A stretch of 64,000 nt of DNA from Candidatus Udaeobacter sp. (lineage in GTDB: Bacteria; Patescibacteriota; Patescibacteriia; Magasanikbacterales; GWA2-37-8). The stretch spans positions 461 to 64,460 of the forward strand of contig DATION010000001.1 in NCBI GenBank assembly GCA_035473115.1, given 5' to 3'. Position 1 is the first letter of the stretch; every line of letters begins with the position of its first letter. Shown here in pieces: positions 20,005 through 64,000 of the stretch. The notes below the pieces were generated by a model that saw only the letters and a list, made by a program, of their open reading frames with translations, did not search any database and was not told the origin of the DNA. A program made the translations under genes and the position numbers.

Positions 20005-20076
20005 CTCCGGGGGCTGGACTCGAACCAGCGAAATCCACGTTAACAGCGTGGCGTTGTACCACTCAACTACCCCGGA
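20005..20076 (-). tRNA. tRNA-Asn (anticodon GTT)
   Basis: Manual cloverleaf: acceptor TCCGGGG/CCCCGGA, D-stem GTTG/CAAC, anticodon stem CCACG/CGTGG with loop CTGTTAA, T-arm GCTGG-TTCGAGT-CCAGC. CCA not encoded. Confidence 0.85.
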
Positions 20077-22355: not shown

Positions 22356-22461
22356 TTTTGTCCCGACCCATGCTTCACAGCTTTGGTCAGGACGAGTTGA
22401 GTATCCGCTTCACTTCAGGAGAACGATTTCGTTCTCAGTGAAGTAGAAGTCGGATCTTCTG

Positions 22462-23244
22462 TCAGTAGGCGACTCGCCACCTATTCCAGTGGCGGTGCTT
22501 CTTGTACTGATCACCATCATGACCACGGCGCATTTTGCGAACGCCGTGGTATTTAGATTCGATAGCGATCATCTCATCTTTGGTCATACGGTAGTAGCGG
22601 TCAGCGAAGTCGCCGTACCGCTCCTCGATCTTGTCCATCTCCACCTGCCTGATCCAGGCCTCTTCCAGCTGATCACCCTGTAGCTCGGTGATCATGCCGT
22701 ACTCGATCAGCCCAGCGGTGGCACTGATCAGTACTGCATCGATCAGAGGCATGAATCCATGACGGAGAGCGTACAGCGCCTGCAGCGCCGAATCGAGGTA
22801 CTTCTTCTTGAAATCCTCGATCTGCATCTGGCGCAGTGTCTCCTTCCTGAACTCTTCCTCTGCTTGGCGCTCTCGCTCAGCCCGCTGCTTGCGATCTTCC
22901 ACCTCAGCCTTGAGTGTGGAGATCAGCAGCGGCATTTGGTTCACCCACCGCTCGAGCCCGTCCACTTGCGTGGGGATGGGTCGGGCGGCGAGCGCGCGAA
23001 CCTGATCTCGGAACTCGCTGTCTGCGTCCGTTCCGTGCGGACAGTGCGAAGCCAGGTTGAGAACCTGCTCCTTGAACTGTTCCGCCGATCGGACGAGTTC
23101 ACGGCGACGCAGTTCGCCGCTTCGCTCCAGTTCCTGGAGCTGTTGAGCGGCTTCAGCTGCAGCCCGTGCCTGTTGGGCGCGGAGGTGGGTGGTCGTGTAT
23201 GACGACGACCGGCTGCTGACGATGACTTCGACCTTGCGTGGCAT
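22462..23244 (-). CDS. GC-rich hypothetical protein, predicted coiled-coil
   Basis: 260 aa, GC visibly about 60%. AGGAG SD (ACAGGAGACATCAG) before the ATG. Consensus promoter upstream. Confidence 0.5.
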   Translation of the reverse strand: MPRKVEVIVSSRSSSYTTTHLRAQQARAAAEAAQQLQELERSGELRRRELVRSAEQFKEQVLNLASHCPHGTDADSEFRDQVRALAARPIPTQVDGLERWVNQMPLLISTLKAEVEDRKQRAERERQAEEEFRKETLRQMQIEDFKKKYLDSALQALYALRHGFMPLIDAVLISATAGLIEYGMITELQGDQLEEAWIRQVEMDKIEERYGDFADRYYRMTKDEMIAIESKYHGVRKMRRGHDGDQYKKHRHWNRWRVAY

Positions 23245-23444
23245 CTGATGTCTCCTGTTGAAGTTGCGGTTGCCCGCACTTCTTCAGGTTGAACACCATT
23301 TGCCATGACGTTGACGTGCGGGGGAAATTGTCTTTTGTACTTCCCCTTTATAACTTCCAGATCATGTTGGTTTTCTCCTTCTCGGGTGGTTTTCCCGCAA
23401 AAAATAGTTATGGATAATTAGCTTTTGCAGAAAAACAACTGTAA

Positions 23445-23473
23445 ATCTTAGCAGGAATATAGTTTTTTGTCAA
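23445..23473 (-). promoter_or_regulatory. Sigma-70-type promoter for the gene at 22462-23244
   Basis: Minus strand: TTGACA, 17-nt spacer, TAAGAT. Lies immediately downstream of repeat copy 2. Confidence 0.5.
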
Positions 23474-23481
23474 GATGGAAC

Positions 23482-23516
23482 AAAAAACAGCCTTTGATTA
23501 AAACGCTGTTTTTTGT
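23482..23516. repeat. 35-bp perfect direct repeat, copy 2 (terminator of the gene at 23566-24258)
   Basis: Identical 35-mer to 22321-22355. The flanks differ. Confidence 0.8.
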
Positions 23517-23565
23517 GTTGGCCACGACTCCCTCCGTGAGTCATGGCGGATGTTGTACAACTACT

Positions 23566-24258
23566 TCAGCCGCCCTTTTTTCCTCGGCCCCCGCGCGCTG
23601 CCGCGCGGTGAACTTTGGCTCTCGCTGCCTTGTAGGCAGCGTGGGCCTTGGCCCCCGCGCTTGTGCCCGTGCTGGACTGCTTCGGCTGGTTCTCCTCGAG
23701 CCACTTCTCGTCCTGACAGCCATCGGCCATGCAGAACTTGAAGGAGACGGGGATCACTGCCTGGCAGCCCTGGCCAGAGCATCGGTGTCCGCAGTCCGAA
23801 CAGTAGTTCGGACCTTCGACTGGGAGTTCCGCGCCGCATCCATTCCCTTTGCAGAGTTTGGTAGTTGGCGCGAAGCTCTTGCATCCTTGGCAGAGCGGGT
23901 ACCATGTCGGGATCTGCCGACCACATCCACCCTTGCATGGGTGAATGCAGTCGTCACAGAGACCGAATCGTTTCCCGACCCGCACCTGGTTGGTGCATTG
24001 AGTGCCAGTTTCCGGATGTTCCCGGTTGCGGCACTGCTGGGTCTGGACAACGACTCGATCGGCCTTGGGTGGCGGTGCAGACTTCATGATGGTTGGTTCG
24101 GGCGTTGTTGCATCGCCCTCCTCCATCACAGCCGTGTGGATGGTCGCCTGTGGCGAGGCCGCTGGCGCCTCGCAGTTGGCGACTGCCTGGACAGGCTGGG
24201 TCTGCATGAGCACAGCAGAGAGAACTTCTTCCAGAACGTTGACGAGATCAGTGAGCAT
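23566..24258 (-). CDS. GC-rich Cys-rich hypothetical protein (multiple CxxC pairs)
   Basis: Start placed at MLTDL (24258), which has an AGGAGA SD 6 nt upstream. The ORF track extends it to 24303. CDDC, CQGC, CSDC and related pairs suggest zinc-ribbon-like modules. Confidence 0.45.
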   Translation of the reverse strand: MLTDLVNVLEEVLSAVLMQTQPVQAVANCEAPAASPQATIHTAVMEEGDATTPEPTIMKSAPPPKADRVVVQTQQCRNREHPETGTQCTNQVRVGKRFGLCDDCIHPCKGGCGRQIPTWYPLCQGCKSFAPTTKLCKGNGCGAELPVEGPNYCSDCGHRCSGQGCQAVIPVSFKFCMADGCQDEKWLEENQPKQSSTGTSAGAKAHAAYKAARAKVHRAAARGGRGKKGG

Positions 24259-24516
24259 GAGAATCTCCTCGTGGGATGTAGTGAACGGGAATGAACCGCA
24301 CACTACTTCCCTGAGAGATCATCTCGTGATCACTAGGTTGATGTGCGGTAGATATTCACAAGCATAAAGCTTCAACGAAAATTTGGTTGTCGTTCCATGA
24401 TCCCCTCCGTAGGTAATTGTACAATGAACGCGGAAACGGCCGTCCGAAGGACAGTTATTCCGACGGAAAGAATTTTTTCCTTTCCCTAGGAACAACTTTC
24501 ATATGAGTAATAAAAG

Positions 24517-30833: not shown

Positions 30834-31262
30834 ATGCCTACAATAAATCAGCTTATCCGCAAAGGTAGACACAGCAAGGTACGCAAAAGCAAAGTACCTG
30901 CTTTGCAGTTTACCATCGACAACTTGCACAGACGCAAAACTATTTTTGCCAAAGGAACTTCTTTTAAGAGAGGTGTTTGTACCAAGGTATATACCACTAC
31001 TCCAAAAAAACCAAACTCTGCTTTGCGTAAAGTAGCCAAGGTTCGTCTTTCCAACGGTATGGAAGTTATCGCTTATATTCCTGGAGAAGGACACAATTTA
31101 CAGGAACACTCCATCGTATTATTACGCGGCGGCCGTGTAAAAGATTTACCAGGTGTGCGTTATCATATCGTACGCGGTGTTTATGATGCTCAGGGTGTGG
31201 AAGGCAGAAAAAAGGGTCGCAGTTTGTATGGCGCCAAGAGACCAAAGGCAGCTAAGAAATAG
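30834..31262 (+). CDS. rpsL: 30S ribosomal protein S12
   Basis: [13 protein letters not shown]-terminus and overall S12 sequence. Confidence 0.95.
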
Positions 31263-31295: not shown

Positions 31296-31772
31296 ATGCG
31301 CGGTGGAAAAAAAGATTACTTAAGAGTGATAGCTCCGGACCCAAAATACGGCAGTGTATCTCTGGCTAAATTTATCAATCATATAATGAAAGGCGGAAAG
31401 AAAACAGTTGCGCAAACAATTGTTTATTCTGCTTTTGACAAAATTGCGGCAGCCAAAAAAGATCCGATGAAAACTTTTGAGGATGCCATCAAAACTGTGC
31501 AGCCTCAAGTAGAAGTTCGTTCTCGCCGAGTTGGCGGAGCCAACTACCAGGTGCCGATGCCGGTTAGCGCCAGCCGCCAAAATGCTCTAACTTTCCGTTG
31601 GATTGTAGATGCAGCTCGCAGCAAAAAAGGCCAGGCTATGGCCGATAAATTAGCTGCAGTTTTAATGGACAGCGCCCAAGGCGTTGGTGATGCAATTAAA
31701 AAACGCGATGATGTTCACAGAATGGCTGAAGCCAACAAGGCCTTTGCTCATTTTGCGAGATTTGCTAAGTAA
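31296..31772 (+). CDS. rpsG: 30S ribosomal protein S7
   Basis: S7 family. Conserved operon position after rpsL. Confidence 0.9.
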   Translation: MRGGKKDYLRVIAPDPKYGSVSLAKFINHIMKGGKKTVAQTIVYSAFDKIAAAKKDPMKTFEDAIKTVQPQVEVRSRRVGGANYQVPMPVSASRQNALTFRWIVDAARSKKGQAMADKLAAVLMDSAQGVGDAIKKRDDVHRMAEANKAFAHFARFAK

Positions 31773-31784: not shown

Positions 31785-33860
31785 ATGCCACGTGAATTTG
31801 CTTTGGATAAATCGAGAAATATCGGCATCATGGCTCACATTGATGCAGGTAAAACTACTACTACTGAGCGTGTTTTGTTTTATACAGGTAAAAAACATAA
31901 GATCGGTGAAGTGCATGAAGGTGCTGCCGAAATGGACTGGATGGAACAAGAAAAAGAACGCGGTATTACTATTACTTCCGCGGCTACTACCTGTTTTTGG
32001 AAAGGTTTTCGTATCAATATCATTGATACTCCGGGCCACGTAGATTTTACCGTAGAAGTAGAGCGTTCTCTGCGCGTTTTAGACGGCGCGGTTGCTTTAT
32101 TTGATAGTTCTCAGGGTGTGGAACCACAATCAGAAACTGTTTGGCACCAAGCGGATAAATATAATGTTTCCCGCATTGCTTTTGTAAATAAAATGGATAA
32201 ACTTGGAGCTGACTTCTTTATGAGTTTAGCTTCCATTAATGAAAGATTATCCAAAGATGCTGTGGCTGTACAGTTGCCGATTGGCGCAGATAGCACATTT
32301 TCTGGATTAATTGATTTAATCGAAGAAAAGGCTTTTAAATTTGAAGGCCAGCACGGAGAAAATATCGTTGAAATTCCTATTCCGGAAGACATGAAAGAAA
32401 TGGTAAAAGAATACAGAGGAAAAATGATTGAAAAAGTTTCCGAAGCTTCCGATGAATTAATGGACAAGTATCTTAACGGTCAATCTTTGACAGTTGAAGA
32501 AATTAAAAAAGCGATCAGAGTTTTGGTTTTGCAAAGTAAAATGTACCCAGTTCTTTGCGGATCTGCTTTGTCCAATATCGGTGTGCAGTTCATGCTTGAT
32601 GCTGTAACTGCTTATCTGCCTTCTCCTTTGGATATGCCACCGGTCAAAGGTGTTAATCCGGATTCCGAAGCTGAAGAAACTCGTCAGGCCGATGATAATC
32701 AGCCATTCTCCGCTTTAGCTTTTAAAATTGCTACTGATCCGTTTGTTGGTAAATTAATTTTCTTCCGTGTTTATTCCGGCCATGTTTCCGCTGGTAGTTA
32801 TGTTTACAACAGCACCAATGGCACCAAAGAACGCTTGGGCAGAATCGTGCGTATGCATGCTAACCACCGTGAAGATGTAACTGATGTTTATGCCGGAGAA
32901 ATCGCGGCAGCCATTGGTTTAAAATCGACTTTTACCGGTGATACTCTTTGCTCTGAAGATAATCCAGTAATTTTGGAAAAAATTGTTTTCCCAGAGCCGG
33001 TTATCTCTATTGCTATTGAACCAAAAACAAAAGCTGACCAAGAAAGAATTGGTATGGCTCTGCAAAAAATGACTGAAGAAGATCCAACCTTCCGCGTACG
33101 CACCGATGAAGAAACATTGCAGACTATTATTTCCGGCATGGGTGAATTGCACTTAGATATTATCGTTGATCGCATGCGTCGTGAATTTAAAGTTGAAGCT
33201 AATGTTGGTAAACCTCAAGTTGCTTATAAAGAAACAATTAAAACTTCGGCTGAAGCTGAAGGTAAATATGTTAAGCAGTCTGGTGGTAAGGGTCAGTATG
33301 GTCATTGTTGGATTAAAGTTGAGCCGATGGAACAAGGAGCTGGCTACGAATTTATTGATGAAGTAAAAGGCGGTTCTATTCCAAAAGAATTTATTCCAGC
33401 TATTGAAAAAGGTGTTAAAGCATCTTTGACCCGCGGTATTCAAGCAGGGTTCCCGGTAGTAGATGTCAAAGTTACTGTTTATGATGGTTCTTACCATGAA
33501 GTTGATTCTTCCGAACAAGCCTTTAAGATGGCCGGTTCAATGGCTTTCCAAGCAGCTTGTAAGAGAGCCAATCCAATGATTATGGAACCGATAATGAAAG
33601 TAGAAACTGTCACTCCGGAAAGTTTCATGGGTGATGTGATTGGTGACTTGAATTCCAAACGCGGACAGATTCAAGAAATGTTTGATCGCGGAACAATGAA
33701 AGTTGTGAAAGCAATTGTACCGTTGGCCAACATGTTCGGTTATGCCACCACCTTGCGCAGTATCAGTCAGGGCCGCGCCAGCTATAGTATGGAATTTGGT
33801 CATTACTCCGAAGTTCCAAGTAATGTGGCTGCAACTATTATTGCCGGTAGTCAAAAATAA
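31785..33860 (+). CDS. fusA: Elongation factor G
   Basis: GTPase G1 AHIDAGKTT and DTPGHVDF. 691 aa. Confidence 0.95.
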
Positions 33861-33889
33861 TTTTAAGGGTATTTAAGCCCAAATAAACT

Positions 33890-33920
33890 AAAAATCCAGT
33901 CTAATTAGACTGGATTTTTA
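33890..33920 (+). terminator. Rho-independent terminator after fusA
   Basis: AAAAATCCAGTCT-AATT-AGACTGGATTTTT. Confidence 0.7.
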
Positions 33921-34007
33921 GTTTAAGTAAAATTTACCTAAAACTAAGTGCATCGTTTTATTTTTTATGGTATAATAAAAACCAATAAAGAAAGCCACTT
34001 TATTTTT

Positions 34008-37000
34008 ATGAAGAGGGGACAAATTTTTAGTTTATACCCAGTTCTCTTCAAGAGAAAATTAAAGAGATTATTTTTGTTGTTTAAAGAAAAATATAATCCG
34101 CATTTAATAATTATAAAAAAGAAATTTCATGTTACGGTGGCGGTAATTTTACTGACAGTAATTTTGGTAAATTTATTTCAATTTTGGTCAGTGCCGATAG
34201 TTCAGGGTGCTACCTATACTTTTGTGCAAAGAGATTGGAGCGGAGGAGTTAGTAATTCTGTAATTGTTCATCCTGATAATCAAACCGGTTGGAATAGTTT
34301 TTCTACCAGCACAAATACCTTTACATCAGGAACCACCACAGTCTCTATCGCCAGCAGCACATACAGTTCTACTGACGACGGCACTTTTTCATCCACTGGC
34401 AGCGCAACTGGCGGCGGTTTTAGCAACGGTGCAACTTCCACTACTTCTATATCAGGCAGCGGCAGCTCTGCCTCCATTAAATTATCCGGTAGCACTACAG
34501 CGGTAAATCGTGTTACTGCCACAACTACAATGACTGGTGCTTTTTATCACGGAGGTGGTCAGATGGTTGGTGCTGCTGGATCTGATTATTTATATATTAT
34601 TGAAGGAGGTAATCGAGCTGCCCCACTGCGTCGTTTGACTATCTCAACTGCTGCTACTTCCAGTTTGGCCACTTATACCTATGCGTATTTTGGCGCTCAA
34701 TTGCTTTGGAATGGCAGTGATGATTATATTTATTTAGCTGAAGGGCAAAATGATAAATTTGATCGTTATTCAATATCAGGTAATTCATGGACTTCAATGG
34801 CTAATTTTCCGGCATCTTTACCAACTGATGTTTCAGAAACTGCTGCTTTACGTTACAACACAGAAGATTACATTTATTTTTTTAGAGGCAGCAGATTTGC
34901 TGATTTTTACCGTTACTCAATCAGCGGCAACAGTTGGTCTTCACTAACCTCATTACCAATAGTAGCTGGTTATGGTATTCAGGCAACAAGAGATGCAAAC
35001 AGCGATAGTATATATGTTTTACCTGCCAATGGTACTAATTTTTATCGCTATTCTATCGCTGGAGATTCGTGGACATCTATGGCAGCTGTTCCTTTATCTT
35101 TTGGTACTACTACAAATGCCGGTATTTTGCATGATGAAGGCAGTGATTATATTTATCTTTTAGTCGGAGATCATCTGTATAGGTATTCAATTAGTGGTAA
35201 CTCCTGGACAACTATGGCTGACGCTTCGTCGGTAAATCCTGATTTTGGTACAACATTATTGCATACTGCCGGCGAAGACACAATTTATGTGACTGGCCAA
35301 TGGGATTGTTGTGCTTCTGTGAGGGTATGGGCATATTCTATTAGCGGCGACAGCTGGACACAGTATGCTATAGTTTCAAACCATAGTGGTGGTTATGGTT
35401 CGCCAAATAAAACAGCTTTTCGTCGTACTTCTGATGAGTCTTTTTATTTTATTACGGCTGCTGGTGGAGATAGTGAAGTGTTCAAATATACAATTAGTCA
35501 AACGATATATAATTCTTCTGGCAACTTTACATCTGCCAGCCTGGATTTAGGGGTTGCCAAAATGAATTCTTTGTCTTGGACCAGCACAACTCCGTCCGGA
35601 GTTGGGAGTAATTCAATCCAATTCCAACTAGCTGCCAATAATGATAACAGTACTTGGAATTATGTTGGTCCGGATGGCACAAATTCTACATTTTTTACTA
35701 GTAACGGCACAACTTCTTTTCCTTCATCTCTGCTAAACAAAAGATATTGGCGGTATAAAGCATTTTTAACTACTGCTGATACCACTGTTTCGCCATCGTT
35801 AGACAGCGTTACTTTTTCTTATTCCTCTTACGCAACCTCTAGCTCTTTAATTTCCTCTATATACGATACGGTTGATCCAACAAATGTTTTGGCCAGCATT
35901 GGTTGGAGCCCATTTTTGCCAACTAGCACTACTATTAAATTTCAACTGCGCACCGGATCTAGCACCTCCAGTATAAACTCGGCCACCTGGGTTGGTCCGG
36001 ATGGTACAGCCTCCACTTTTTTTACTAATAGTTCCGGAGAGACTACCACTTCCACTATGCGTGATGGATCCGGTGATAGATATTTCCAGTACAAGGCTTT
36101 CTTACAAACCACAAATCCTGCATTTACGCCGGTCCTTTCCAGCGTTACTAGCACCTATGTAGTTAATGCTAATCCGGAAATTCAAAATGTTTCCGCCAGT
36201 GAAAATGGTAGTGGTGTAGTAACTATTACTTATCAAGCCAGAGATCCTGATACTAGCACAGGTACTGTTAATCCGGGCTTTGTCAGCTCCACGTTTGAAT
36301 ACTTAGACGCCAACGGCGCTTATCAAACTATACCTGCCAATCAGCTTTCAGCCGGAGCAAATAGTAATTTGGCTGTTCAAGGAGTTAACTGGACTACCTC
36401 TACTGTTAGTTGGACATTGCCGTCCGGGCTTAATATTGCCGCTAGTCGGATAAGAGTAACGGTAAATGATAATGAAGCGGCGAATAACACCGCTGCCTCT
36501 TCTTCGCCTACCTTTCAGATAGATAGCGTTGCTCCATCGGCAACATCAGTAATTGTGGATGGTTCCCAAACACCAGCTCTGCTTACTTTTAATGTCAGTG
36601 ATAGTTCTACTTTATTCATGAAAGTTTCGGAAAATAGTACCTTATCAGATGTTTCTACCTGGTCAGCTTTTACAGCCACTACCACATTTACACTGAGTTC
36701 TAATCCAGATACAGTTTATGCTCAGTTTAAAGATGTTTATGGTAATACCTCAACTATTGTTCATGCCACGACACCGCAAACCCCAAATAGTTTTATCGTT
36801 CAGGATAATTCCAATGTTTTAAATGGCGCTACTGATTATCGTCTTTTTGTAGCTTGGAGAGTAGTGGCTACTCCTAGTCCGGGCTTTGGCAGCTATAAAG
36901 TTTATCGATCTGAGGATCAATCCACCTGGACTTTAATTTCAACCATTAGTTCTATCAGTGATAATTTCGTTACTGACAATACCACTGTTTCAAATACTCT

Positions 37001-40000
37001 TTACTATTATAAAGTAAAAACTGTTGATGCGGATGGCAACACTTCAGTTTTTTCTTCCATTGTAAATGGGCGCGCTAATGGCGCCCAAGATGCTGGTGAA
37101 GGTGGAGGCGGGTCAGGTGTAGGCAGCGATCCGGTTATTACTTCGGTCGCCACTTCTTCACCTACTCCATCTTCTATCACCATTACTTGGGATACGGATG
37201 CTTTATCTAATTCTGTTGTTGGTTTTTCTACTACCCCAGGAAATTTTACCGATAATACCGTGACGGTTAATTCCATGGTAAATAATTCTTCCGGAGTAGG
37301 AAATCACAATGTGGTTTTGGGAGGACTTGTTCCAAATACTACTTATTATTTTAATGTAAAATCTGTTTCCGCCAGCAACGCTTCTTCAACCGATAGTAAT
37401 GGCGGTAATGGTTATATTTTTACCACTCCTTCCGGCCCGACTATTACCGGGGTTTCGGCCGTAGAAGTTAATAATACTTTTGCCAGAGTAGTTTGGAGTA
37501 CTTCAGAAAATTCTAACAGTTCAGTAATTTATTCCACTTCCACAAGCTTAACCAACTCTGTAACCACCAGTTCTGTTCAAATGGGCACTGCCCATGATAT
37601 GACTTTAACTGGTTTAACAGCCGGTACGAGATATTATTTTTACGTTCAATCGGTCAACGGATCCGGAGTAACTTCCACAGATAAAAATTTAGTAGGTGGC
37701 ATACTTCAATATTTTAATTTGGCGACTACTCTAGACAGCACCGGTCCGACAATTTCTTCCATTGCCACCACTACCAGCGATAACTCGGCTAACATTACTT
37801 GGAACACAAACGAAAGCGCCGATTCGCAAATTATTTATGGTCTTACGACTAGTTATGGCTCCACTACTACTTTAGATAGTACTTTTACTACTCAACATTT
37901 AATGACTCTCTCGGGACTTAGTTCTTCAACAGCTTATCATTTCAAAATATTATCCAGAGATAAAAATAATAATTTAACAGCTTCAGCTGATCAATTAATA
38001 ATTACTTCCGCTACTCCCGATACTACCGCGCCAATTATTACTAGTGTTGCCACCTCTAGCGTATCTCTGACCGGCGCCACTGTTACTTGGACAACAGACG
38101 AGTTAGCTTCCTCAATTGTTGAATACGGTATTACCACTTCTTCATATAGCAGTCTGGCTGGTTCAAATTCCGATTCAGTCACTTCGCATTCTGTTTCTTT
38201 AGCTAGTCTGAGCGGCAATACTGCTTATTATTTTAGAGTTAGATCAGCTGATTCGGCCGGCAATTCGGCCATGAGTGATAATAGCGGCCAGGGCTGGCAA
38301 TTTGTTACCGTAGCCGATACCACTGGTCCGGTAATTTCGGATGTAAATCTTTTGGTCAATGATACTTCGGTAGCAATTTCTTGGACAACCAATGAGCCGG
38401 CTAGTTCAGAAGTTGATTATGATACAACTTCCAGTACATTCGGTTTTTCTAGCTCCACTGCTTCACTCGTTACCAACCATACAATTACTATTACCGGTTT
38501 AACAACTAATGTTACTTATTTCTTCCGCCTAAAATCCACGGATAGTGCTGGTAATACTACTATAGATAATAATGGCGGTGCTGCTTATAGCTTTACTACT
38601 CAACAGACTCCGGGCTTGGTTAGAGTAGGTGGCGGCGGTGGCGGAGCGCCAAGAGATACCGATCCTCCGGAAATTAGCAATCTTAGCATAACCGATATTG
38701 CTCCTAGCTCAGCTAGTGTTATTTGGCAAACCAGTGAAGATGGTAATTCTTTGGTACGGTTTGGATCAAGTATTAAATATGGAACTTTAACCGGTAATGA
38801 TTCAGAACTGCTTACTTCCAAACATAATGTCAGTCTGTTTGATTTAAAACCAGGACAAACCTATCATCTAAGAGCCGTAACTTATGATGCTGCCGGTAAT
38901 CGCGCCGAATCAATCGATAAAACTTTTTCAACTTTGAATTCAGACGGTTCGGAAGTTACCCCAAGCACTAGCACCGAAAAGACACCGGAAGAAGAGGTGA
39001 CTCCGGAAACCCAATTTATATCCGATTCTTTGCAGAAGGCTTCAAGTCAATCTTTGCAAAAGTTCCTAGCTGATATAGCTTCTAATCCATTCTTGAAAAA
39101 TATTCCTGAAGATAAGTTTATTCAAGCTATTTTCGAAATGACCAGTAAAGTAGTTGAAGCTCCGACCATCGTTGGAGTTAAACCGACAGTAGAAGTAAAA
39201 GGAACCTCCGCTCTTATTAGGTGGTCGACAGATAAAAAATCTTCCTCTGAGTTAAACTATGCCAGAGATGTTGATTATAAGCCTGCTTCTAATAACGCTT
39301 ACACTAACGCAGCTGTTAATCCGGATGAATTTAGTGTTAACCATTCTGTACAATTAACTGGTCTTGATCCGGGAGTCTTATATCACTTTAAAGTAAGTTC
39401 AAAAGGCTTAATTGGTCCGGCAGCTGTCAGCGGTGACTATACTTTCTTAACCACCGGTGATCTGCCGATAATTTCCAATATTAAAGTGGCCAGACCAACT
39501 GAATCGCAGTCTTCTATCATAGTTGATTGGAGAACCAATATTCCGACTGCCGGTACCGTAGAATATAAGAATGTTAAATCCGGACAATCCTTGACCCAAG
39601 GAGACGAAACATTGCTCGTTAATCATGAAGTTGCTCTCAAAGGTTTGGAGGGCGGCGTAAATTATACTTTAGTTATCAAAGCTAGAGATGAATTCAAAAA
39701 CGAAGTTGCCAGTTTGCCGATAACATTCTCCACTCTTTTAGATAAGATAAGTCCGGTAATAACTAAACTTTCTTCCGAATCAACTTTATACCCGGGTAAA
39801 GATTCTAAAGTTCAAACTATTATTTCTTGGGAGACAGATGAGCCGGCTACTTCTCAAGTGTTCTATCAGGAAGGTTTGGCTGGTGATAATGTAATTTCGT
39901 TGCCGCTAGACACCTCGCTTAATACTCGCCACGTGGTGGTAATAACCAAATTTAAACCTGGCACAGTTTATAAATATTGGGTAGAATCAAAGGATCTGGC

Positions 40001-40124
40001 AGGCAATAATGGAAAGTCAGAAATATTTTCTATTCTTACGCCGCAGCAAAAAGAAACGATTGTTGATATTATTATTAATAATTTCCAATCAGTGTTTGGC
40101 TGGACAAAGAATATAGGTTTGTAG
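34008..40124 (+). CDS. Giant (about 2,038 aa) cell-surface protein: N-terminal TM anchor, Kelch-like beta-propeller repeats, then an array of fibronectin-III-like domains
   Basis: Start at the ATG downstream of an extended -10 (TGGTATAAT, about 33963-33971). Repeated YRYSISGNSWT blades. Many FN3-like units (VTWTTDE...S.VEYG..., ARVVWSTSENS...). Gly runs. Ser/Thr-rich. Confidence 0.7.
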   Translation: MKRGQIFSLYPVLFKRKLKRLFLLFKEKYNPHLIIIKKKFHVTVAVILLTVILVNLFQFWSVPIVQGATYTFVQRDWSGGVSNSVIVHPDNQTGWNSFSTSTNTFTSGTTTVSIASSTYSSTDDGTFSSTGSATGGGFSNGATSTTSISGSGSSASIKLSGSTTAVNRVTATTTMTGAFYHGGGQMVGAAGSDYLYIIEGGNRAAPLRRLTISTAATSSLATYTYAYFGAQLLWNGSDDYIYLAEGQNDKFDRYSISGNSWTSMANFPASLPTDVSETAALRYNTEDYIYFFRGSRFADFYRYSISGNSWSSLTSLPIVAGYGIQATRDANSDSIYVLPANGTNFYRYSIAGDSWTSMAAVPLSFGTTTNAGILHDEGSDYIYLLVGDHLYRYSISGNSWTTMADASSVNPDFGTTLLHTAGEDTIYVTGQWDCCASVRVWAYSISGDSWTQYAIVSNHSGGYGSPNKTAFRRTSDESFYFITAAGGDSEVFKYTISQTIYNSSGNFTSASLDLGVAKMNSLSWTSTTPSGVGSNSIQFQLAANNDNSTWNYVGPDGTNSTFFTSNGTTSFPSSLLNKRYWRYKAFLTTADTTVSPSLDSVTFSYSSYATSSSLISSIYDTVDPTNVLASIGWSPFLPTSTTIKFQLRTGSSTSSINSATWVGPDGTASTFFTNSSGETTTSTMRDGSGDRYFQYKAFLQTTNPAFTPVLSSVTSTYVVNANPEIQNVSASENGSGVVTITYQARDPDTSTGTVNPGFVSSTFEYLDANGAYQTIPANQLSAGANSNLAVQGVNWTTSTVSWTLPSGLNIAASRIRVTVNDNEAANNTAASSSPTFQIDSVAPSATSVIVDGSQTPALLTFNVSDSSTLFMKVSENSTLSDVSTWSAFTATTTFTLSSNPDTVYAQFKDVYGNTSTIVHATTPQTPNSFIVQDNSNVLNGATDYRLFVAWRVVATPSPGFGSYKVYRSEDQSTWTLISTISSISDNFVTDNTTVSNTLYYYKVKTVDADGNTSVFSSIVNGRANGAQDAGEGGGGSGVGSDPVITSVATSSPTPSSITITWDTDALSNSVVGFSTTPGNFTDNTVTVNSMVNNSSGVGNHNVVLGGLVPNTTYYFNVKSVSASNASSTDSNGGNGYIFTTPSGPTITGVSAVEVNNTFARVVWSTSENSNSSVIYSTSTSLTNSVTTSSVQMGTAHDMTLTGLTAGTRYYFYVQSVNGSGVTSTDKNLVGGILQYFNLATTLDSTGPTISSIATTTSDNSANITWNTNESADSQIIYGLTTSYGSTTTLDSTFTTQHLMTLSGLSSSTAYHFKILSRDKNNNLTASADQLIITSATPDTTAPIITSVATSSVSLTGATVTWTTDELASSIVEYGITTSSYSSLAGSNSDSVTSHSVSLASLSGNTAYYFRVRSADSAGNSAMSDNSGQGWQFVTVADTTGPVISDVNLLVNDTSVAISWTTNEPASSEVDYDTTSSTFGFSSSTASLVTNHTITITGLTTNVTYFFRLKSTDSAGNTTIDNNGGAAYSFTTQQTPGLVRVGGGGGGAPRDTDPPEISNLSITDIAPSSASVIWQTSEDGNSLVRFGSSIKYGTLTGNDSELLTSKHNVSLFDLKPGQTYHLRAVTYDAAGNRAESIDKTFSTLNSDGSEVTPSTSTEKTPEEEVTPETQFISDSLQKASSQSLQKFLADIASNPFLKNIPEDKFIQAIFEMTSKVVEAPTIVGVKPTVEVKGTSALIRWSTDKKSSSELNYARDVDYKPASNNAYTNAAVNPDEFSVNHSVQLTGLDPGVLYHFKVSSKGLIGPAAVSGDYTFLTTGDLPIISNIKVARPTESQSSIIVDWRTNIPTAGTVEYKNVKSGQSLTQGDETLLVNHEVALKGLEGGVNYTLVIKARDEFKNEVASLPITFSTLLDKISPVITKLSSESTLYPGKDSKVQTIISWETDEPATSQVFYQEGLAGDNVISLPLDTSLNTRHVVVITKFKPGTVYKYWVESKDLAGNNGKSEIFSILTPQQKETIVDIIINNFQSVFGWTKNIGL

Positions 40125-40158
40125 ATATGAAAATTTTTGGCTATATAAATTTTTTAGC

Positions 40159-41496
40159 ATGGATCCGATTATTAAAACAGAAAACATTAAAGTTATTTAT
40201 AATAGAGGGCAGGATAATGAATATATCGCTCTTAATGATATAAGTATTGAGGTGTTTCCCCAGGAGTATACAATTTTTTTTGGACCTTCCGGCTGCGGGA
40301 AATCGACTTTGCTTTATACAATTCTTGGACTGCAAAGACTAAGCGAAGGAAAATTGTATATCCAGGGCCGGGATAGCGCCTCTTTTACAGAGGAAGAAAA
40401 GAGCAAGATGAGTTCACAGTTTTTTGGGATAGTTTTCCAAAATTTTAACTTGATATATTCTTTAAATGTTATTGATAATATCGCTCTGCCCCAGGTGTTT
40501 ATTGAAGCTAATCAGGAAGAAAGGCTGGCCAAAGCTCAAAGCCTGCTCACTCGTTTTGGCATAGCAACCAGAGCCAAGAATTTACCGGCATCTCTTTCGG
40601 GTGGTCAGCAGCAAAGAGTAGCCATTTGTCGATCTTTGATTAATGACCCTTTGATCCTTTTGGCTGATGAACCGGTTGGAAATTTGGATAGTGAATCTGC
40701 TAGAATAGTAATGCAATCGCTTTATGATATTAATAAGAAAGATAAAAAAACGGTAATTCTGGTTACTCACGATCCGAGCTATCTGCCATATGCCGACCGA
40801 GTCTATTATTTTAAAGATGCTAAGTTTGAAAAAGTTGTGCAAAATAGAAATCCTAAAAAAATGGTCAATGGCGGTATTGAAATTAAACCTAAGGGCAAAG
40901 AAGATGAAAACGGTGAATCTGATCTTTTGGGTGAATTAGAAAAATTAGCGCGAGTGCATCATTTTATGACCGTGCCTCAGTTAAAGGCTTGGAGCATAAC
41001 CAATTATCTGATCGATGATTTTACTATTAATCAGGTAGAAAGACTGGAACAATTTATGGAAGAAATGTTGGCTGGAAAATTAAGTCAGCATGCATTTTTT
41101 GAAAATCTAAATACCCCGTATAATGAAGGAGGCGTAGGTTTGTACAAAGGCACTGCTATCAGGTTCGTTAAAGAAACGGCCGCTATCTTAAAACAAGTCA
41201 ATGAATTTTTGGCAGAGGTAAAAAAGCATAATAATTCGGATAATAATATAAAAATATTGAGCATGTTAAGCAGATTCTTATTACAAGAACACCGGGGCAA
41301 TCTGAAAGCGGAAGAGATCGAAAGATTTGAAGCCGGCATCAGAGATCGTTTAAATGGCAGTATGAACTCTGTCCAGTTTAGTAAATTATTACATAAGCAT
41401 TTTGCAGATGGCGGCGTGGGGTTAAGCGTAACAACGGCCGAACATTTATCGGAGAGGCTGCAGATTATCCTGACCCAAGCTTATGAAGTACATTGA
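40159..41496 (+). CDS. ABC transporter ATP-binding protein (MacB/LolD-like) with a C-terminal extension of about 215 aa
   Basis: Walker A GPSGCGKST, signature LSGGQQQRV, Walker B LLADEP. Residues after about 230 have no recognised domain. Confidence 0.8.
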   Translation: MDPIIKTENIKVIYNRGQDNEYIALNDISIEVFPQEYTIFFGPSGCGKSTLLYTILGLQRLSEGKLYIQGRDSASFTEEEKSKMSSQFFGIVFQNFNLIYSLNVIDNIALPQVFIEANQEERLAKAQSLLTRFGIATRAKNLPASLSGGQQQRVAICRSLINDPLILLADEPVGNLDSESARIVMQSLYDINKKDKKTVILVTHDPSYLPYADRVYYFKDAKFEKVVQNRNPKKMVNGGIEIKPKGKEDENGESDLLGELEKLARVHHFMTVPQLKAWSITNYLIDDFTINQVERLEQFMEEMLAGKLSQHAFFENLNTPYNEGGVGLYKGTAIRFVKETAAILKQVNEFLAEVKKHNNSDNNIKILSMLSRFLLQEHRGNLKAEEIERFEAGIRDRLNGSMNSVQFSKLLHKHFADGGVGLSVTTAEHLSERLQIILTQAYEVH

Positions 41497-42682
41497 TCTG
41501 TTTTCTTTATCAACCAGAATGTTTCGCACTAATCCGTCACGTACCTGGCTGACAGTTTTAGGTATCAGTGTTGGAATTTCAGCAGTTTTATTTCTGGTCT
41601 CTTTTGGCTATGGGTTGCAGAATATTATTTTGCAAAAAATAGTTTTTAACCAGGCTTTGCTTAGTGTAGTGGTTACTCCCAGCAGTGACTTGATTGTTTT
41701 AGACGACCAGGCTTTGGCTGATATTGGTAAAATAAAAAATGTTGTTGATGTGGCCGGTTTGGCAAAATTTACAGGGCAGGTATCTCTGGACGGAATAAAT
41801 GGCACAGTCGATATGAGAGCGGTTAGCGCTTCTTTTTTGGCCTATGCCGGCACAATGGTAAAGTATGGAAATTTATACGAGGAAAAGGATCAAAATCAGA
41901 TTTTGATTTCTGACGCTGTTTTAAAATTATTTGGTATTACCGATGCCAGCACGGTGCTGGGAAAAAAAGTTAGTTTAAAAATTTTTGCCAATAAAAGCGG
42001 CGCCGATCAGTCGCAATTAGAAATTGTTGATATACCGGGCAGTTATACCATCAAAGGTGTTATAGAAGACAGCCAAGAGAGTTATATTTTTTTACCGCTT
42101 AAAGAAGTGACTCAGTATGTAAAAGTGGATCGTTATGAACAGGCACGGGTAAAAGTAAATAATAGTACTGATCTGGCGGGAGTCAAAGAAGAAGCTATAG
42201 CCAAAGGCTACCAAACCCAATCGCTATCGGAAACAATTGATCAAGCCAATAAAATCTTTCATGTGATCCAGATAGTCTTGGGTTTGTTTGGGGCCGTGGC
42301 TTTGATAGTTTCTTCTATCGGCATGTTTAATACGATGACTGTAACTTTGCTTGAACGTACCAATGAAATTGGTATTATGCGCGCTTTGGGAGCCAGCAAA
42401 TCAAATTTACGCAATTTATTTTTGGCTGAATCGGTAATCATTGGTTTTTTGGGCGGGTTGGTCGGCACGGCCTTGGGTATTATCGCCGGTCAAATTTTTA
42501 ATTTAATTATCAATGGTTTGGCTGCTAAGTTTGGCGGAGCCAAAATATCTTTATTTGTTTATCCAATTTCTTTTTTGTTAATAATTGTTTTCCTTTCATT
42601 ATTTATTGGTTTTTTGTCAGGAATATTTCCGGCGCGCCGGGCTGCAGGTATGGATCCGTTGGAAGCTTTGCGCTATAAGTAA
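41483..42682 (+). CDS. ABC transporter permease, FtsX/MacB family
   Basis: N-terminal TM, large periplasmic domain, C-terminal FtsX 3-TM bundle. Confidence 0.8.
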   Translation: MKYIDLFSLSTRMFRTNPSRTWLTVLGISVGISAVLFLVSFGYGLQNIILQKIVFNQALLSVVVTPSSDLIVLDDQALADIGKIKNVVDVAGLAKFTGQVSLDGINGTVDMRAVSASFLAYAGTMVKYGNLYEEKDQNQILISDAVLKLFGITDASTVLGKKVSLKIFANKSGADQSQLEIVDIPGSYTIKGVIEDSQESYIFLPLKEVTQYVKVDRYEQARVKVNNSTDLAGVKEEAIAKGYQTQSLSETIDQANKIFHVIQIVLGLFGAVALIVSSIGMFNTMTVTLLERTNEIGIMRALGASKSNLRNLFLAESVIIGFLGGLVGTALGIIAGQIFNLIINGLAAKFGGAKISLFVYPISFLLIIVFLSLFIGFLSGIFPARRAAGMDPLEALRYK

Positions 42683-42690: not shown

Positions 42691-42797
42691 TTGACAATAA
42701 AACTAGCTGTGCTATACTTAAACCAAGTTAGGAAGCGGTAAGCAATTATTCGCTTTCAGCAATACAGGACTCCTTCGGGAGTCTTTTTGCTTTTTTA
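42691..42797 (+). ncRNA. Candidate short transcript: consensus promoter, about 70 nt, then a UUCG-loop terminator
   Basis: TTGACA, 16-nt spacer, TATACT (42691-42718). Hairpin AGGACTCC-TTCG-GGAGTCT (42766-42784) followed by TTTTTGCTTTTTT. No ORF. Confidence 0.35.
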
Positions 42798-42813: not shown

Positions 42814-42841
42814 TTGACTTTAAATTTTCCAGTGGTAAGAT
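42814..42841 (+). promoter_or_regulatory. Sigma-70-type promoter for the gene at 42866
   Basis: TTGACT, 16-nt spacer, TAAGAT. Confidence 0.45.
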
Positions 42842-42865: not shown

Positions 42866-43321
42866 ATGCAAAATTCTCAACTTAATAGAATTATTAAATT
42901 GATCAAAAGAACCGGAGAGAAAACTGTGATTATGGACAATGAGTCTGACGCTGTTATGATGTTGATGGATTTAGGTGTTTACGAAAAAATGTTGGATCGC
43001 TCTCAGGGCGTAGAAAAATTGACTGAAGAAGAACTACTAGAAAAAATCAATCGTGATGTGGCTATTTGGCGAGCTTCTAATAACGACAAAAACGAGATTG
43101 ATTTAGAGGATGAAATAGTAGAGAAGCCTCAAAGCGTCAAACCGCTTACCTCAAGCGAAACATTCGTAGAAAAAAATAAATCCGAAAATCAAACAGCACC
43201 TCAGGATAATACAATTACCATTAATAAATACCCAAATATTAATGCGGAACAGGAGCACTCAGCTGCTGATATTATCGCCGAAGAAGAGGAAGAGAAGTTC
43301 TATCTAGAACCAGTAGAATAA
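42866..43321 (+). CDS. Acidic hypothetical protein; N-terminus weakly resembles Phd/YefM antitoxins
   Basis: GEKTVIMDNESDAVMMLMDLGVYEKML resembles the Phd/YefM N-terminal pattern. Long Glu-rich tail. Low confidence. Confidence 0.3.
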   Translation: MQNSQLNRIIKLIKRTGEKTVIMDNESDAVMMLMDLGVYEKMLDRSQGVEKLTEEELLEKINRDVAIWRASNNDKNEIDLEDEIVEKPQSVKPLTSSETFVEKNKSENQTAPQDNTITINKYPNINAEQEHSAADIIAEEEEEKFYLEPVE

Positions 43322-43394: not shown

Positions 43395-43422
43395 TTGCAT
43401 TTTTTTTTGTTTCTGATATAAT
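43395..43422 (+). promoter_or_regulatory. Sigma-70-type promoter for tuf
   Basis: TTGCAT, 16-nt spacer, TATAAT. Confidence 0.5.
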
Positions 43423-43520: not shown

Positions 43521-44708
43521 ATGGCTGAGTTTATACGAAACAAGCCACACTTGAACATTGGTACTATCGGTCACGTTGACCATGGTAAAACAACCTTGAC
43601 TGCTGCTATTTTGGCAGTTTTACGCTCTCGCGGAGGCGCTGCTTCCAATAAGGGTGTTGATGATTTAGATAAATCTCCAGAATCTAAAGCTCGCGGTATC
43701 ACTATCTCCACCGCTCACGTAGAATACGAAACTGACGCTAGACACTACGCTCACGTAGACTGTCCTGGTCATGCCGATTATGTTAAAAACATGATTACTG
43801 GTGCTGCTCAAATGGATGGCGCCATCTTAGTTGTTTCTGCAGCTGACGGCCCAATGCCTCAGACCAGAGAACACATCTTGTTAGCTCGCCAGGTTGGTGT
43901 GCCTTACATTGTTGTATTCTTAAACAAAGTTGACCAAGTTTCTGATCCAGAGTTAGTAGATTTAGTTGAAGACGAAGTTCGTGATCTATTAAAGAAATAT
44001 GGCTTCCCTGGAGATACTACCACTATAATCCGTGGTTCCGCTTTGCAAGCTTTACAAAATCCTACCGATGAAGCTGCTGCCAAACCAGTTATGGATTTAA
44101 TGGCTGCTTGTGACGCAATTCCTCAGCCTACTCGTGATATTGATAAACCTTTCTTAATGCCTATCGAAGACGTATTCTCTATTGAAGGCCGCGGTACAGT
44201 AGTTACCGGTCGTTTAGAGAGAGGTATTATCCGCATCAATGATGAAGCGGAAATCGTAGGTATGGCTGAAACTACATCAAAAACCGTTGTTACTGGTGTA
44301 GAAATGTTTAATAAACAATTAAAAGAAGGCCAAGCTGGTGATAACGTTGGTTTATTGCTCCGCGGTACCAAGAAAGAAGATGTAGAACGCGGTATGGTTA
44401 TTGCTAAACCTGGCAGTATTACTCCTCACACTGAATTTGATGCTCAAGTTTATATCTTAACTAAAGAAGAAGGCGGCAGACATAAACCTTTCTTCAAAGG
44501 TTATAAACCTCAATTCTATATCCGCACTACAGATGTAACCGGAGAAGTAGAATTAGCAGCCGGTACCGAAATGGTTATGCCTGGCGACACAGTTTCTTTC
44601 AAAGTTAAATTGATTACTCCGGTTGCGATGGAAGAAAAAATGAACTTTGCTATCCGCGAAGGTGGCAAAACTGTAGGTTCAGGAGTAGTAACTTCAATCA
44701 CAAAATAA
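43521..44708 (+). CDS. tuf: Elongation factor Tu
   Basis: [25 protein letters not shown] motifs. 395 aa. Confidence 0.95.
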
Positions 44709-61602: not shown

Positions 61603-62124
61603 ATGAAGACCCTTCTGTTGACACTGGCATTCCTCCTCCCGATGGTAGCCCCTGGCTGTGCCATAGAGCCCGAAGGAGGCAGTGCCCCACCCGATGCGAG
61701 TGCGGCTCCGGCTCCGACTGCTGACAAGCCGACGGCCAGTACTCGTACGTCAGATCCCGATGAGGGGTTTCGCCAGGACTGCGACTGGTTTCCAGATCAG
61801 CAGGTCTGCGGGGAAGATGGCGGAGGCGGTGGTGGTGGAGGTGGCGGCGGAGGCGGTGGTTCGTCATGCTGGATGAGCTGCTCACCTTACACGTGTTGGC
61901 TCTACCTGGATGGTGCCCTTCATTGGACGTTCCAGTGTACTACTGGTTCGGGAAACAGCACCTGCTCAAGTTCGGGGTGCGGTTCATGTCCGGCTCAGGG
62001 CGTGACCCCAGGATGCATCACCGGTTGTGGCAATGGTGGGGGGGACGACTACGCTCTGGCATTGTGCCGAGCTACTTGCTGGATCAATTCAACCTCTACA
62101 TGCTCAGGTGGCTACACGTCATAG
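61603..62124 (+). CDS. GC-rich secreted Cys-rich protein with a poly-Gly tract (paralog of 63218-63724)
   Basis: Signal peptide ending APGC. Pro/Ala-rich linker. G16 run. C-terminal domain with about 14 Cys. AGGAG SD. Confidence 0.6.
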   Translation: MKTLLLTLAFLLPMVAPGCAIEPEGGSAPPDASAAPAPTADKPTASTRTSDPDEGFRQDCDWFPDQQVCGEDGGGGGGGGGGGGGGSSCWMSCSPYTCWLYLDGALHWTFQCTTGSGNSTCSSSGCGSCPAQGVTPGCITGCGNGGGDDYALALCRATCWINSTSTCSGGYTS

Positions 62125-62189
62125 TAACTTAGTGTATTAGTAGAACCGCACCGCGCAAGTGGTGACGCTTCTCCGATACTAGATGGCCC

Positions 62190-62235
62190 GGACCCGGTGC
62201 AGCACGAAGTGCAGCCCGGGTCCTTTGTTTTATTG
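62190..62235 (+). terminator. GC-rich terminator of cassette 1
   Basis: GGACCCGG...CCGGGTCC followed by TTTGTTTTATT. Confidence 0.55.
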
Positions 62236-62286
62236 ATCAATTTTAAAATAATTTCTAAGATTTTTATAAAAAATTAAATTTAATGT

Positions 62287-62367
62287 ATAGAAAAATCGCT
62301 AATTTTAGCGATTTTTTTGTATTTTTTACAAAAGGGTATTGACAAAAAAATTAAAATAGTGTATATT
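62287..62367 (+). promoter_or_regulatory. Cassette 2 terminator-promoter unit
   Basis: Hairpin ATCGCTAA-TTT-TAGCGAT with A/T flanks. Then TTGACA (62339), 17-nt spacer, TATATT (62362): a perfect consensus -35. Confidence 0.6.
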
Positions 62368-62437
62368 TCTTTTCGCCTGGCAATTAGTTGTCGGGTACGC
62401 GGCGATCATGCCGTGGTTACAGGAGGTTCTAGTAAGA

Positions 62438-62623
62438 ATGAAGAAGGCAATCAAGACGTCGCTCACGTTGAACAGCGAGACCGTTCGGCAGCTCGGCACC
62501 ACCGAGCTGAAGGGGGTCGTCGGCGGTTACCAAACCGCCACCCGTGGCAACACGGACTGTGCCTCCGAAGCGACGGGGTGCTACACGACCGAATGGTCGT
62601 GTCCGGGCTGGAGCTGCTGGTAG
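62438..62623 (+). CDS. Double-glycine-leader peptide precursor (bacteriocin- or RiPP-like), 61 aa
   Basis: AGGAGG SD 10 nt upstream. Leader MKKAIKTSLTLNSETVRQLGTTELKGVVGG fits the LxxxELxxVxGG motif. The 31-aa core is Thr/Ser-rich with 4 Cys (...EWSCPGWSCW). Confidence 0.55.
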   Translation: MKKAIKTSLTLNSETVRQLGTTELKGVVGGYQTATRGNTDCASEATGCYTTEWSCPGWSCW

Positions 62624-63950: not shown

Positions 63951-64000
63951 ATTTATAGGCATATTCAATTGACAAAGACTTATCGTTCAACTATACTGCT

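Follow-up and report, generated by a model that had tools for sequence, protein, structure and literature searches.

The locus analysed here lies in a 64,000-nucleotide stretch of contig DATION010000001.1 (hereafter the window) and raises a simple question: do the three genes that stand between fusA and tuf, encoding a giant protein with fibronectin type III (FN3) domains, an ATP-binding cassette (ABC) ATPase, and a permease, work together, and does their place among the str genes matter? The original prediction, made from the DNA letters alone, had described an 8.7-kb three-gene insert, and the open reading frame (ORF) map and a Pfam scan confirm it, giving the order rpsL-rpsG-fusA, then giant protein, ABC ATPase, and permease, then a small ORF, tuf, and rpsJ. 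The trio is predicted to form one envelope machine conserved in Patescibacteria, which are also called the candidate phyla radiation (CPR), and no second copy of any gene in this order was found within the 64-kb window. The permease and ATPase genes overlap by 14 nt. The three genes are as follows.

34008-40124, + strand: giant partner protein, 2,038 aa, ATG start (ORF call, Pfam, conserved start context)
40159-41496, + strand: ABC ATPase, 445 aa (Pfam, alignment, AlphaFold)
41483-42682, + strand: type VII ABC permease, 399 aa (Pfam, PDB sequence matches)

The three genes form a conserved unit

A metagenome scan in which the query was just the C-terminal 115 aa of the giant protein yielded 80 loci; the informative subsets are the 40 loci with at least 3.2 kb of downstream sequence and the 33 with at least 5 kb. 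Of the 40 loci, 37 have the ATPase nucleotide-binding domain (NBD) and the permease directly after the C terminus of the giant protein, on the same strand and at a median gap of 38 nt, and a tblastn match to the C-terminal extension of the ATPase (see below) is present in most of these 37. The order giant FN3 protein, ATPase, permease was also found in 6/6 context look-ups, at ATPase identities of 73, 71, 61, 52, 50, and 44%. The earlier view of the three genes as a dedicated unit is borne out by these counts, and gene order argues that the surface protein and the ABC pair are a functional unit, with strong coupling between them. The source names attached to the trio are Magasanikbacteria, Moranbacteria, Pacebacteria, Parcubacteria, Saccharibacteria, and Patescibacteria group. 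A scan of genome contigs with the full ATPase alignment, using Walker-type patterns, returned only generic ABC cassettes from unrelated phyla and nothing on the trio family.

The ABC pair and its C-terminal extension

The original prediction had called the two smaller genes a MacB-like ABC pair, the permease being of the FtsX/MacB type. Matches in Pfam, the PDB, and NCBIfam agree with this description and divide the two proteins as follows.

ATPase aa 1-235: NBD of the MacB/LolD/FtsE clade (Pfam, alignment A1)
ATPase aa 238-270: low-confidence linker (AlphaFold)
ATPase aa 271-445 (40969-41493, + strand): helical C-terminal extension (AlphaFold, hhalign)
Permease: first transmembrane helix, MacB_PCD (aa 21-238), and FtsX (aa 268-392) (Pfam)

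The NBD is of the kind that accompanies type VII ABC permeases, belonging to the MacB/LolD/FtsE clade with its catalytic motifs intact: Walker A, the Q-loop, the LSGGQ signature, Walker B with E171, and the H-loop with H204 are invariant in 44 homologues (alignment A1). Foldseek superimposes it on the MacB NBD with a TM-score of 0.94 (normalised to the target), and its best PDB sequence matches are 5xu1_A (E = 3e-47), MJ0796, and MacB, with FtsE and LolD also matching. The permease scores 61 bits against MacB_PCD (cut-off 27) and 71 bits against FtsX (cut-off 25.5), and it has the layout of a type VII ABC permease, namely an N-terminal transmembrane helix, a large outside domain, and an FtsX domain with three transmembrane helices. 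Its PDB sequence matches are YtrF (9o9x_C, E = 6.5e-27), Spr0695, MacB, and LolC/E/F.

No curated NCBIfam model came near its cut-off with either subunit. The scores were 51.8 bits for FtsX_Gpos (cut-off 225), 44.4 for FtsX_Gneg (255), 44.3 for FtsX_actino (250), 160.6 for FtsE (264.85), 88.8 for lolCE (362.45), 174.9 for LolD (307.75), and 169 and 84 for the MacB equivalog (966), and the best permease matches were ADOP, LolCE, and MacB. Because these scores fall far below the curated cut-offs, the pair is classed, as far as protein matches can place it, as a type VII ABC system but not as FtsEX, LolCDE, or MacB proper. By analogy, it may work by outward mechanotransmission and not through a transmembrane substrate path.

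The ATPase had also been noted for an unexplained C-terminal extension, which is real and helical. More than 120 homologues, the most distant at 41% identity, have it complete, and the AlphaFold model has nine helices at a predicted local distance difference test (pLDDT) score of 78. The extension consists of two homologous helical units of ~80 aa each, with the motif P..xGGVGLxxxTA just before the last helix of each; hhalign aligned unit 1 with unit 2 at 99.5% probability (E = 4e-22), which indicates a tandem internal duplication. A helix-hairpin-helix reading of GGVGLxxxTA was considered and found unsupported. The extension had no sequence match in the PDB, a best Foldseek E value of 1.5 against PDB folds, and no match in Pfam (27 members) or NCBIfam. 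A profile search of 1.84 billion representative proteins returned 351 clusters, and the extension stood behind an ABC cassette in 9/9 complete longer members checked. It is best classed as an orphan domain exclusive to this transporter family.

A constant C-terminal core and a variable N-terminal part

The length of 2,038 aa given for the giant protein in the original prediction holds with the start at ATG 34008, from which the residues below are numbered.

aa ~1-38: basic tail
aa 39-60: sole hydrophobic segment (hydropathy scan)
aa ~66-80: AxA-like site VQG↓A, then ATYTFVQRDWSGG
34008-34247, + strand: the basic tail, transmembrane segment, VQG↓A, and ATYTFVQRDWSGG together (hydropathy scan, motif conservation)
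aa 67-190: Ser/Thr-rich stretch
aa ~191-520 (34578-35567, + strand): probable Kelch-type beta-propeller of about seven blade units (Pfam Kelch_4/6/1, motif scan)
aa ~500-718 (35505-36161, + strand): two copies of a ~105-aa non-FN3 beta-sandwich module (BLASTP)
aa 719-930: stretch with no assigned domain family, taken as Ig-like
aa 931-1521 (36798-38570, + strand): six FN3 domains of the N-terminal extension (self-built iterated hidden Markov model (HMM); Pfam fn3, Pur_ac_phosph_N)
aa 1522-1552: Gly-rich junction GLVRVGGGGGGAPRDTDPPEIS
aa ~1545-2038 (38640-40121, + strand): family-defining core (end-to-end alignment with short core proteins)
aa 1553-1636: FN3a
aa 1637-1717: ~80-aa linker with a helical part
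aa 1718-2005: FN3b, FN3c, and FN3d
aa 2006-2038: C-terminal tail KETIVDIIINNFQSVFGWTKNIGL

Partner sizes were taken from ORFs extracted from the metagenome loci, because homology searches with the two ends of the giant protein gave only short proteins (<1,000 aa and at most 202 aa). Proteins with this C terminus range from 467 to 2,958 aa. Most complete partners have about 470-550 aa and consist of a cleavable signal peptide, four FN3 domains, a linker, and the tail; their signal peptides end in AxA, with no lipobox and no Cys at +1. The mature short proteins can be aligned along their whole length with window residues ~1545-2038, and the signal-peptide cleavage site of these forms falls exactly at the Gly-rich junction. 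The window protein is best read from this alignment as the conserved core plus a 1,500-aa N-terminal extension, and among the partners the part upstream of the core varies from nothing to about 2,400 aa. Because all of the size variation lies N-terminal to a constant C-terminal core, the C terminus is taken to be the attached end.

Conservation within the giant protein is greatest in FN3d and the tail, with 76-91% identity in four closer relatives and 57-67% in L007, the relative at 52% ATPase identity. The putative Kelch propeller, at 26-66% across five relatives, is the most variable of the large folded domains. The conserved tail of ~25 residues ends in FGW; all sequences of alignment A3 have FGWT, and FGW-like tails come up again throughout the metagenome loci. 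The tail contains several charged residues and has a low mean hydrophobicity.

Pfam and NCBIfam matches in the partner are confined to FN3-type, other Ig-like, and Kelch-type families, and no LytM, CHAP, or NlpC/P60 domain was found with either database. More than 12 FN3 domains had been proposed. We count 10 clear ones, which together with the two beta-sandwich copies and aa 719-930 come close to that figure; the six of the extension have per-domain E values of 1e-20 to 1e-31 with the iterated HMM built from the protein's own repeats, and the array scores 145 bits against fn3 (cut-off 25) and 175 bits against Pur_ac_phosph_N (cut-off 30). In place of the proposed eight or so Kelch-like blades, about seven Kelch-like repeats are counted by eye, with four exact Y(R/A)YSI(S/A)G(N/D)SW motifs among them. 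The Kelch scores were 26.9 for Kelch_4 (cut-off 21.6), 24.5 for Kelch_6 (25.3), and 19.7 for Kelch_1 (20.1), and Kelch and Beta-prop_ATRN-LZTR1 domains are present in homologues.

The ~105-aa beta-sandwich module links the giant protein to the prepilin-type surface proteins of the same phylum (N_methyl plus CarboxypepD_reg). By BLASTP it is 50% identical over 110 aa to P0402 and 34% identical to P0406, both of which carry the N_methyl prepilin motif, and P0406 also shares the QxDWSGG motif that recurs in Patescibacteria proteins of this type. Unlike the giant protein, they carry a type IV prepilin leader, and neither the FN3 core nor the FGW tail is present in them.

The transmembrane anchor of the original prediction corresponds to the single N-terminal hydrophobic segment, although cleavage at VQG↓A is also possible, and the hydropathy scan found no hydrophobic segment at the C terminus. 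Because it has one N-terminal transmembrane or signal segment and modules in common with CPR prepilin-type proteins, the giant protein is predicted to be extracytoplasmic, and it may serve as a surface adhesin, as originally suggested. In the distant giant forms of L009, L106, L107, L109, and L122, the cytoplasmic N terminus before the transmembrane segment extends to ~100-135 aa and includes a stretch resembling an excisionase/MerR-type helix-turn-helix (e.g., NIKELQAVLKKNGFSSSYSYILKLIKEKKIQGKKV), which is putative.

A proposed stalk protein actuated by a type VII ABC pair

Combining these sequence features with the analogy to FtsEX, we hold with moderate confidence that the trio is a type VII ABC mechanotransmission complex that holds or actuates an FN3 stalk protein by its C terminus. 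The FN3 protein would be exported by Sec and would then dock by FN3d and the tail, possibly with the helical linker too, onto the permease's extracytoplasmic domain. Cytoplasmic ATP binding and hydrolysis would be passed mechanically through the permease to the FN3 partner, and the complex would hold and switch, or position, a wall-spanning FN3 stalk. Short forms, about four FN3 domains long, would span the wall, whereas in the window clade the stalk would be lengthened to 10 FN3 domains plus other beta-sandwich modules, with the Kelch propeller and the pilin-type modules at the far end projecting beyond the wall. A fast-evolving propeller and pilin-type modules at that end would fit a ligand- or host-binding tip. 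The tandem helical domain of the ATPase would serve as a cytoplasmic regulatory or docking domain; with two copies of the helical unit per ATPase, there would therefore be four per dimeric complex.

FtsEX is the closest analogue of such an arrangement. It too is a pair of the type VII ABC kind, in which the ATPase is separate and the four-helix permease bears a large outside domain, it has a dedicated secreted partner that is regarded as actuated by ATP-driven mechanotransmission and not transported (EnvC in E. coli, PcsB in S. pneumoniae, CwlO in B. subtilis, RipC in M. tuberculosis), and FtsE is among the matches of the NBD. FtsEX reportedly actuates EnvC, PcsB, and RipC mechanically. The present system differs in that its permease has a full MacB periplasmic core domain, its NCBIfam scores against the FtsX and FtsE models fall short of the cut-offs as given above, the place of a coiled-coil hydrolase or activator is taken by an FN3 array whose C-terminal FN3 domain and tail are conserved, its ATPase carries the ~175-aa orphan C-terminal domain, and its three genes are strictly adjacent.

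Several observations weigh against the stalk model. The ABC pair is missing downstream in 3 of the 40 informative loci, and Pfam and NCBIfam show no domain in the FN3 protein that would be enzymatic or activate a hydrolase. The amphipathic character of the tail is no more than moderate, its helical hydrophobic moment being not significantly higher than that of shuffled sequences (p about 0.11). Most giant forms, distant ones included, carry the conserved motif (A/G)x(A/G)↓xTYxFxQxDWSGG right after the N-terminal transmembrane segment; the N terminus of the giant may thus also be anchored or functional, which would place the propeller near the membrane and not at a distal tip. A fourth conserved secreted protein of 13 core-type loci is missing from the window and its clade. 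Finally, the Southlakia Tn-seq tables (PMC10633639), the one genome-wide genetic data set for Patescibacteria that our search turned up, contain no evident orthologue: SEML1_0890 is an FN3 protein of 195 aa that does not adjoin a MacB-type pair, and two MacB-type ATPases listed there, of 215 and 311 aa, are too short to include the C-terminal extension.

The fourth gene just mentioned lies directly after the permease in loci with short core partners (L101, L102, L108, L110, L115, L119, L125, L129, L131, L132, L142, L143, and L144). Its product is secreted, has 590-705 aa, is rich in Cys and Thr, and shows no Pfam match and no similarity to the window giant.

A bolder version of the stalk model, which we regard as a long shot, is an ATP-powered surface appendage found across the CPR, in which a cytoplasmic ABC motor with the orphan domain would extend, retract, tilt, or unlock the FN3 stalk via the MacB-type permease, and in some lineages a rapidly evolving Kelch tip would seize host cells or substrates. 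If true, a motor-driven stalk would give episymbiotic ultra-small bacteria a new machine for adhesion or contact, one that differs from type IV pili. Patescibacteria make up a large share of bacterial diversity, and their few cultured members live attached to other cells; to our knowledge, their surface machines are almost unknown apart from type IV pili.

The trio can be recognised in several CPR lineages from its FN3 core protein with an FGW tail, its ABC ATPase with a tandem helical domain, and its MacB-type permease. Full-text literature searches for the module found no description of it. What appears to be new is a dedicated partner family and an ATPase domain within the type VII ABC superfamily, whose mechanotransmitters would thereby gain an extracytoplasmic partner of a new type as well as a new domain on the cytoplasmic side. 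The trio could also serve as a marker for annotating hundreds of genes now listed as "hypothetical" or as a generic "ABC transporter."

Alternative explanations and the fusA-tuf position

The protein could instead be the substrate: held at the outer membrane face by its C-terminal tail or its uncleaved N-terminal segment once Sec has exported it, it would be pulled off by the ABC machine at the expense of ATP and passed to the wall or an S-layer, or released. Type VII ABC systems do act on Sec-exported substrates (lipoproteins for LolCDE, enterotoxin STII for MacAB), the permease has the full MacB periplasmic core domain and not the reduced FtsX one, with ADOP, LolCE, and MacB as its best NCBIfam matches, the C-terminal tail is conserved, and the synteny of the trio fits this explanation as well as it fits the stalk model. 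LolCDE in particular shares the MacB-type fold, handles Sec-exported proteins on the membrane's outer face, and contributes LolD, LolC, LolE, and LolF to the matches. However, a lipobox or acylation site is missing from the partner, as is any hydrophobic C-terminal segment that could be extracted, the tail is charged in several places and of low mean hydrophobicity, there is one permease gene where LolCDE has two, and all LolCE and LolD scores are far below their cut-offs. One substrate gene per transporter, conserved domain for domain, also resembles a stoichiometric partner more than a cargo. We consider extraction rather unlikely.

The pair might also be an ordinary pump of the MacB type that exports a small molecule or peptide or confers immunity to it, with the FN3 protein as an extracytoplasmic accessory that replaces the membrane-fusion protein (MFP) adaptor and bridges to the wall. 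The sequence relatives do include exporters and resistance pumps (MacB, DarD, DevA, BceA, and Spr0694/0695) and also YtrEF, and the module has no MFP gene. Spr0693-0695 of S. pneumoniae (5xu1) and YtrEF of B. subtilis (9o9x) are the best solved-structure matches for both subunits and have the same domain order. Their ATPase chains, Spr0694 and YtrE (245 and 251 aa), align only to the NBD, have no counterpart of the C-terminal extension, and are missing from the searches made with it. Spr0693 is an MFP-like adaptor, which the module here lacks, and we know of no FN3 partner with this C terminus for either Spr0694/0695 or YtrEF. MacAB-TolC differs further: no HlyD/MFP domain occurs in the module or its neighbours (seven contexts), the ATPase and permease are encoded by separate genes, and the scores against the MacB equivalog are far too low for membership. 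An FN3 array is not a conduit, however, an accessory of 470 to nearly 3,000 aa with a fast-evolving propeller is hard to square with a pump adaptor, and the contexts examined show no linked genes for bacteriocins, lantibiotics, or regulators. A pump of this kind is improbable.

The original prediction had read the placement among highly expressed genes as a sign of a major surface adhesin or host-attachment protein, and insertion into the str order might indeed co-express a surface protein with the ribosomal genes. The position is the same as in the window at 73, 71, and 61% ATPase identity (L001, L003/L004, L005/L006) and is common to all contigs examined whose ATPase is at least 61% identical (L001, L003/L004/L090, L005, and also L091 and L092), and in L007 the trio is again beside the str genes, immediately upstream of rpsL. 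In L007, however, fusA, the small ORF, and tuf stand together, L008 (50%) and L009 (44%) have no str genes within 10 kb of the trio, and tuf lies downstream of the module in only 3 of the 33 loci with at least 5 kb, leaving 30/33 without it. The original prediction had held that finding the protein elsewhere in relatives with an intact str operon would point to a recent local rearrangement. Distant relatives do carry the trio elsewhere with the str order kept, but the rearrangement is not recent. Because the placement is kept at 61% ATPase identity or more and is not seen in distant relatives, it is best regarded as an old trait of a single clade and not as a recent event or something inherent in the system. 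By this comparison it is a clade-specific accident of genome history with little functional weight and no bearing on expression, and the str position is useful only as a clade marker.

Transcription signals speak in the same direction. The remaining features of the locus are as follows.

30834-31262: rpsL (ORF map and Pfam)
31296-31772: rpsG (ORF map and Pfam)
31785-33860: fusA (ORF map and Pfam)
33886-33923, + strand: intrinsic terminator after fusA, a perfect 17-bp hairpin between an A-run and a U-run (-22.1 kcal/mol, z = -9.8)
33968-33976, + strand: extended -10 promoter of the module, TGGTATAAT, a conserved TGnTATAAT box
42766-42797, + strand: strong intrinsic terminator past the permease, GGACTCC-TTCG-GGAGTCT plus a T-run, doubling as the 3' end of a candidate small RNA
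42866-43321, + strand: small ORF, 151 aa, between the permease and tuf
43521-44708: tuf, followed by rpsJ

In the canonical str arrangement, tuf immediately follows fusA in one transcription unit; here the two genes are 9.66 kb apart, and the giant gene, the small ORF, and tuf each have an extended -10 promoter of their own. The promoter that the original prediction had placed after the fusA terminator is conserved in five relatives. Within it, T.TG.TATAAT is invariant in the window, L001, L003, L005, and L092, against a mean intergenic identity of only 48%, and hairpins occur at the position of the fusA terminator in L001 and L092. The mechanical ORF start, GTG 33948, lies upstream of this promoter, whereas the context of ATG 34008, ATGAAAAGGGG, is invariant in five relatives together with the TGnTATAAT box ~32 nt before it; ATG 34008 is therefore taken as the true start. 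Because the module is bracketed by terminators and has a promoter of its own, it is predicted not to be part of the str transcript, being insulated from rpsL-rpsG-fusA by the 17-bp terminator and transcribed from its own extended -10 promoter. Coupling to translation is highly improbable as an explanation of the trio.

Type I-like secretion, in which the conserved C terminus would be a secretion signal and the adjoining ABC genes would export the giant as for RTX adhesins, resembles the locus superficially (a giant repeat protein with a conserved C terminus beside ABC genes, and, as in SiiE, LapA, and MpIBP, long beta-sandwich arrays with a distinct ligand-binding region), but it is contradicted by the N-terminal Sec-type signal (a textbook cleavable signal peptide in the core forms) where those adhesins have a C-terminal one, by a four-helix MacB/FtsX-type permease in place of an HlyB-type one, by the lack of MFP or outer-membrane factor genes among those found, and by FN3 instead of BIg/RTX repeats. 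The dedicated export machine of the original prediction is, in this sense, unlikely, and MacB-type transporters are not known to us to pass proteins across the cytoplasmic membrane.

The small ORF, a candidate small RNA, and other features of the window

The small ORF (MQNSQLNR...EEEEKFYLEPVE), which the original prediction did not mention, has a conserved N terminus (MQNSQLNRIIKLIKRTGEK...) and an invariant acidic C terminus, EE.EE[KR]FYLEPVE. It is preceded by a conserved extended -10 promoter of its own and matches nothing in Pfam or NCBIfam. It lies directly 5' of tuf in every relative that shows tuf, including L007. It was considered as a fourth gene of the module and rejected: because it stays with tuf in L007 while the module is elsewhere, it belongs to the tuf unit and not to the insert. 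In L007, the 1.3 kb that separate fusA from the small ORF contain no convincing ORF and no Rfam match.

Between the permease and the small ORF lies a candidate small RNA (42691-42797, + strand). A near-consensus promoter, TTGACA-16-TGcTATACT (42691-42718), precedes a ~74-nt two-hairpin transcript that ends in the strong terminator (minimum free energy -26.3 kcal/mol, z = -5.6). The candidate matches no Rfam family. L003 and L091 retain it, with both arms of the terminator stem changed, and it is absent from L001, L005, and L092. The promoter-like sites at 33968-33976, 42708-42718, 42831-42841, and 43414-43422 are all of the extended -10 type (TGnTATAAT-like); the -35 is weak ahead of the giant gene and tuf and good at the remaining two (TTGACA, TTGACT). 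Promoters in this lineage may usually be of the extended -10 form.

The contig has a G+C content of ~39%, with islands of ~60% at 12500-13900 and 22400-24300 and a stretch of ~51% at 62000-64000. The first island is an ORF for an RCC1-repeat beta-propeller (12558-13883, minus strand), and the second contains two ORFs without a Pfam match; the G+C-rich islands are possibly foreign DNA or assembly chimeras. ARAGORN places a 91-nt tRNA-Ser(GCT) at 13672-13762 (minus strand), inside the RCC1 ORF. The Rfam tRNA model misses it yet finds a tRNA-Asn at 20005-20076, and the tRNA-Ser(GCT) call is probably a false positive.

An ATPase identical to that of the window (P0001) comes from an NCBI contig labelled "Candidatus Udaeobacter sp." (Verrucomicrobiota). 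For the str genes and the module alike, all close relatives are Patescibacteria, mostly Magasanikbacteria, and the Magasanikbacteria contig L001 is 97% identical to the window in rpsL and 92% in tuf. The label is probably a binning or classification error, and the window probably derives from a CPR genome.

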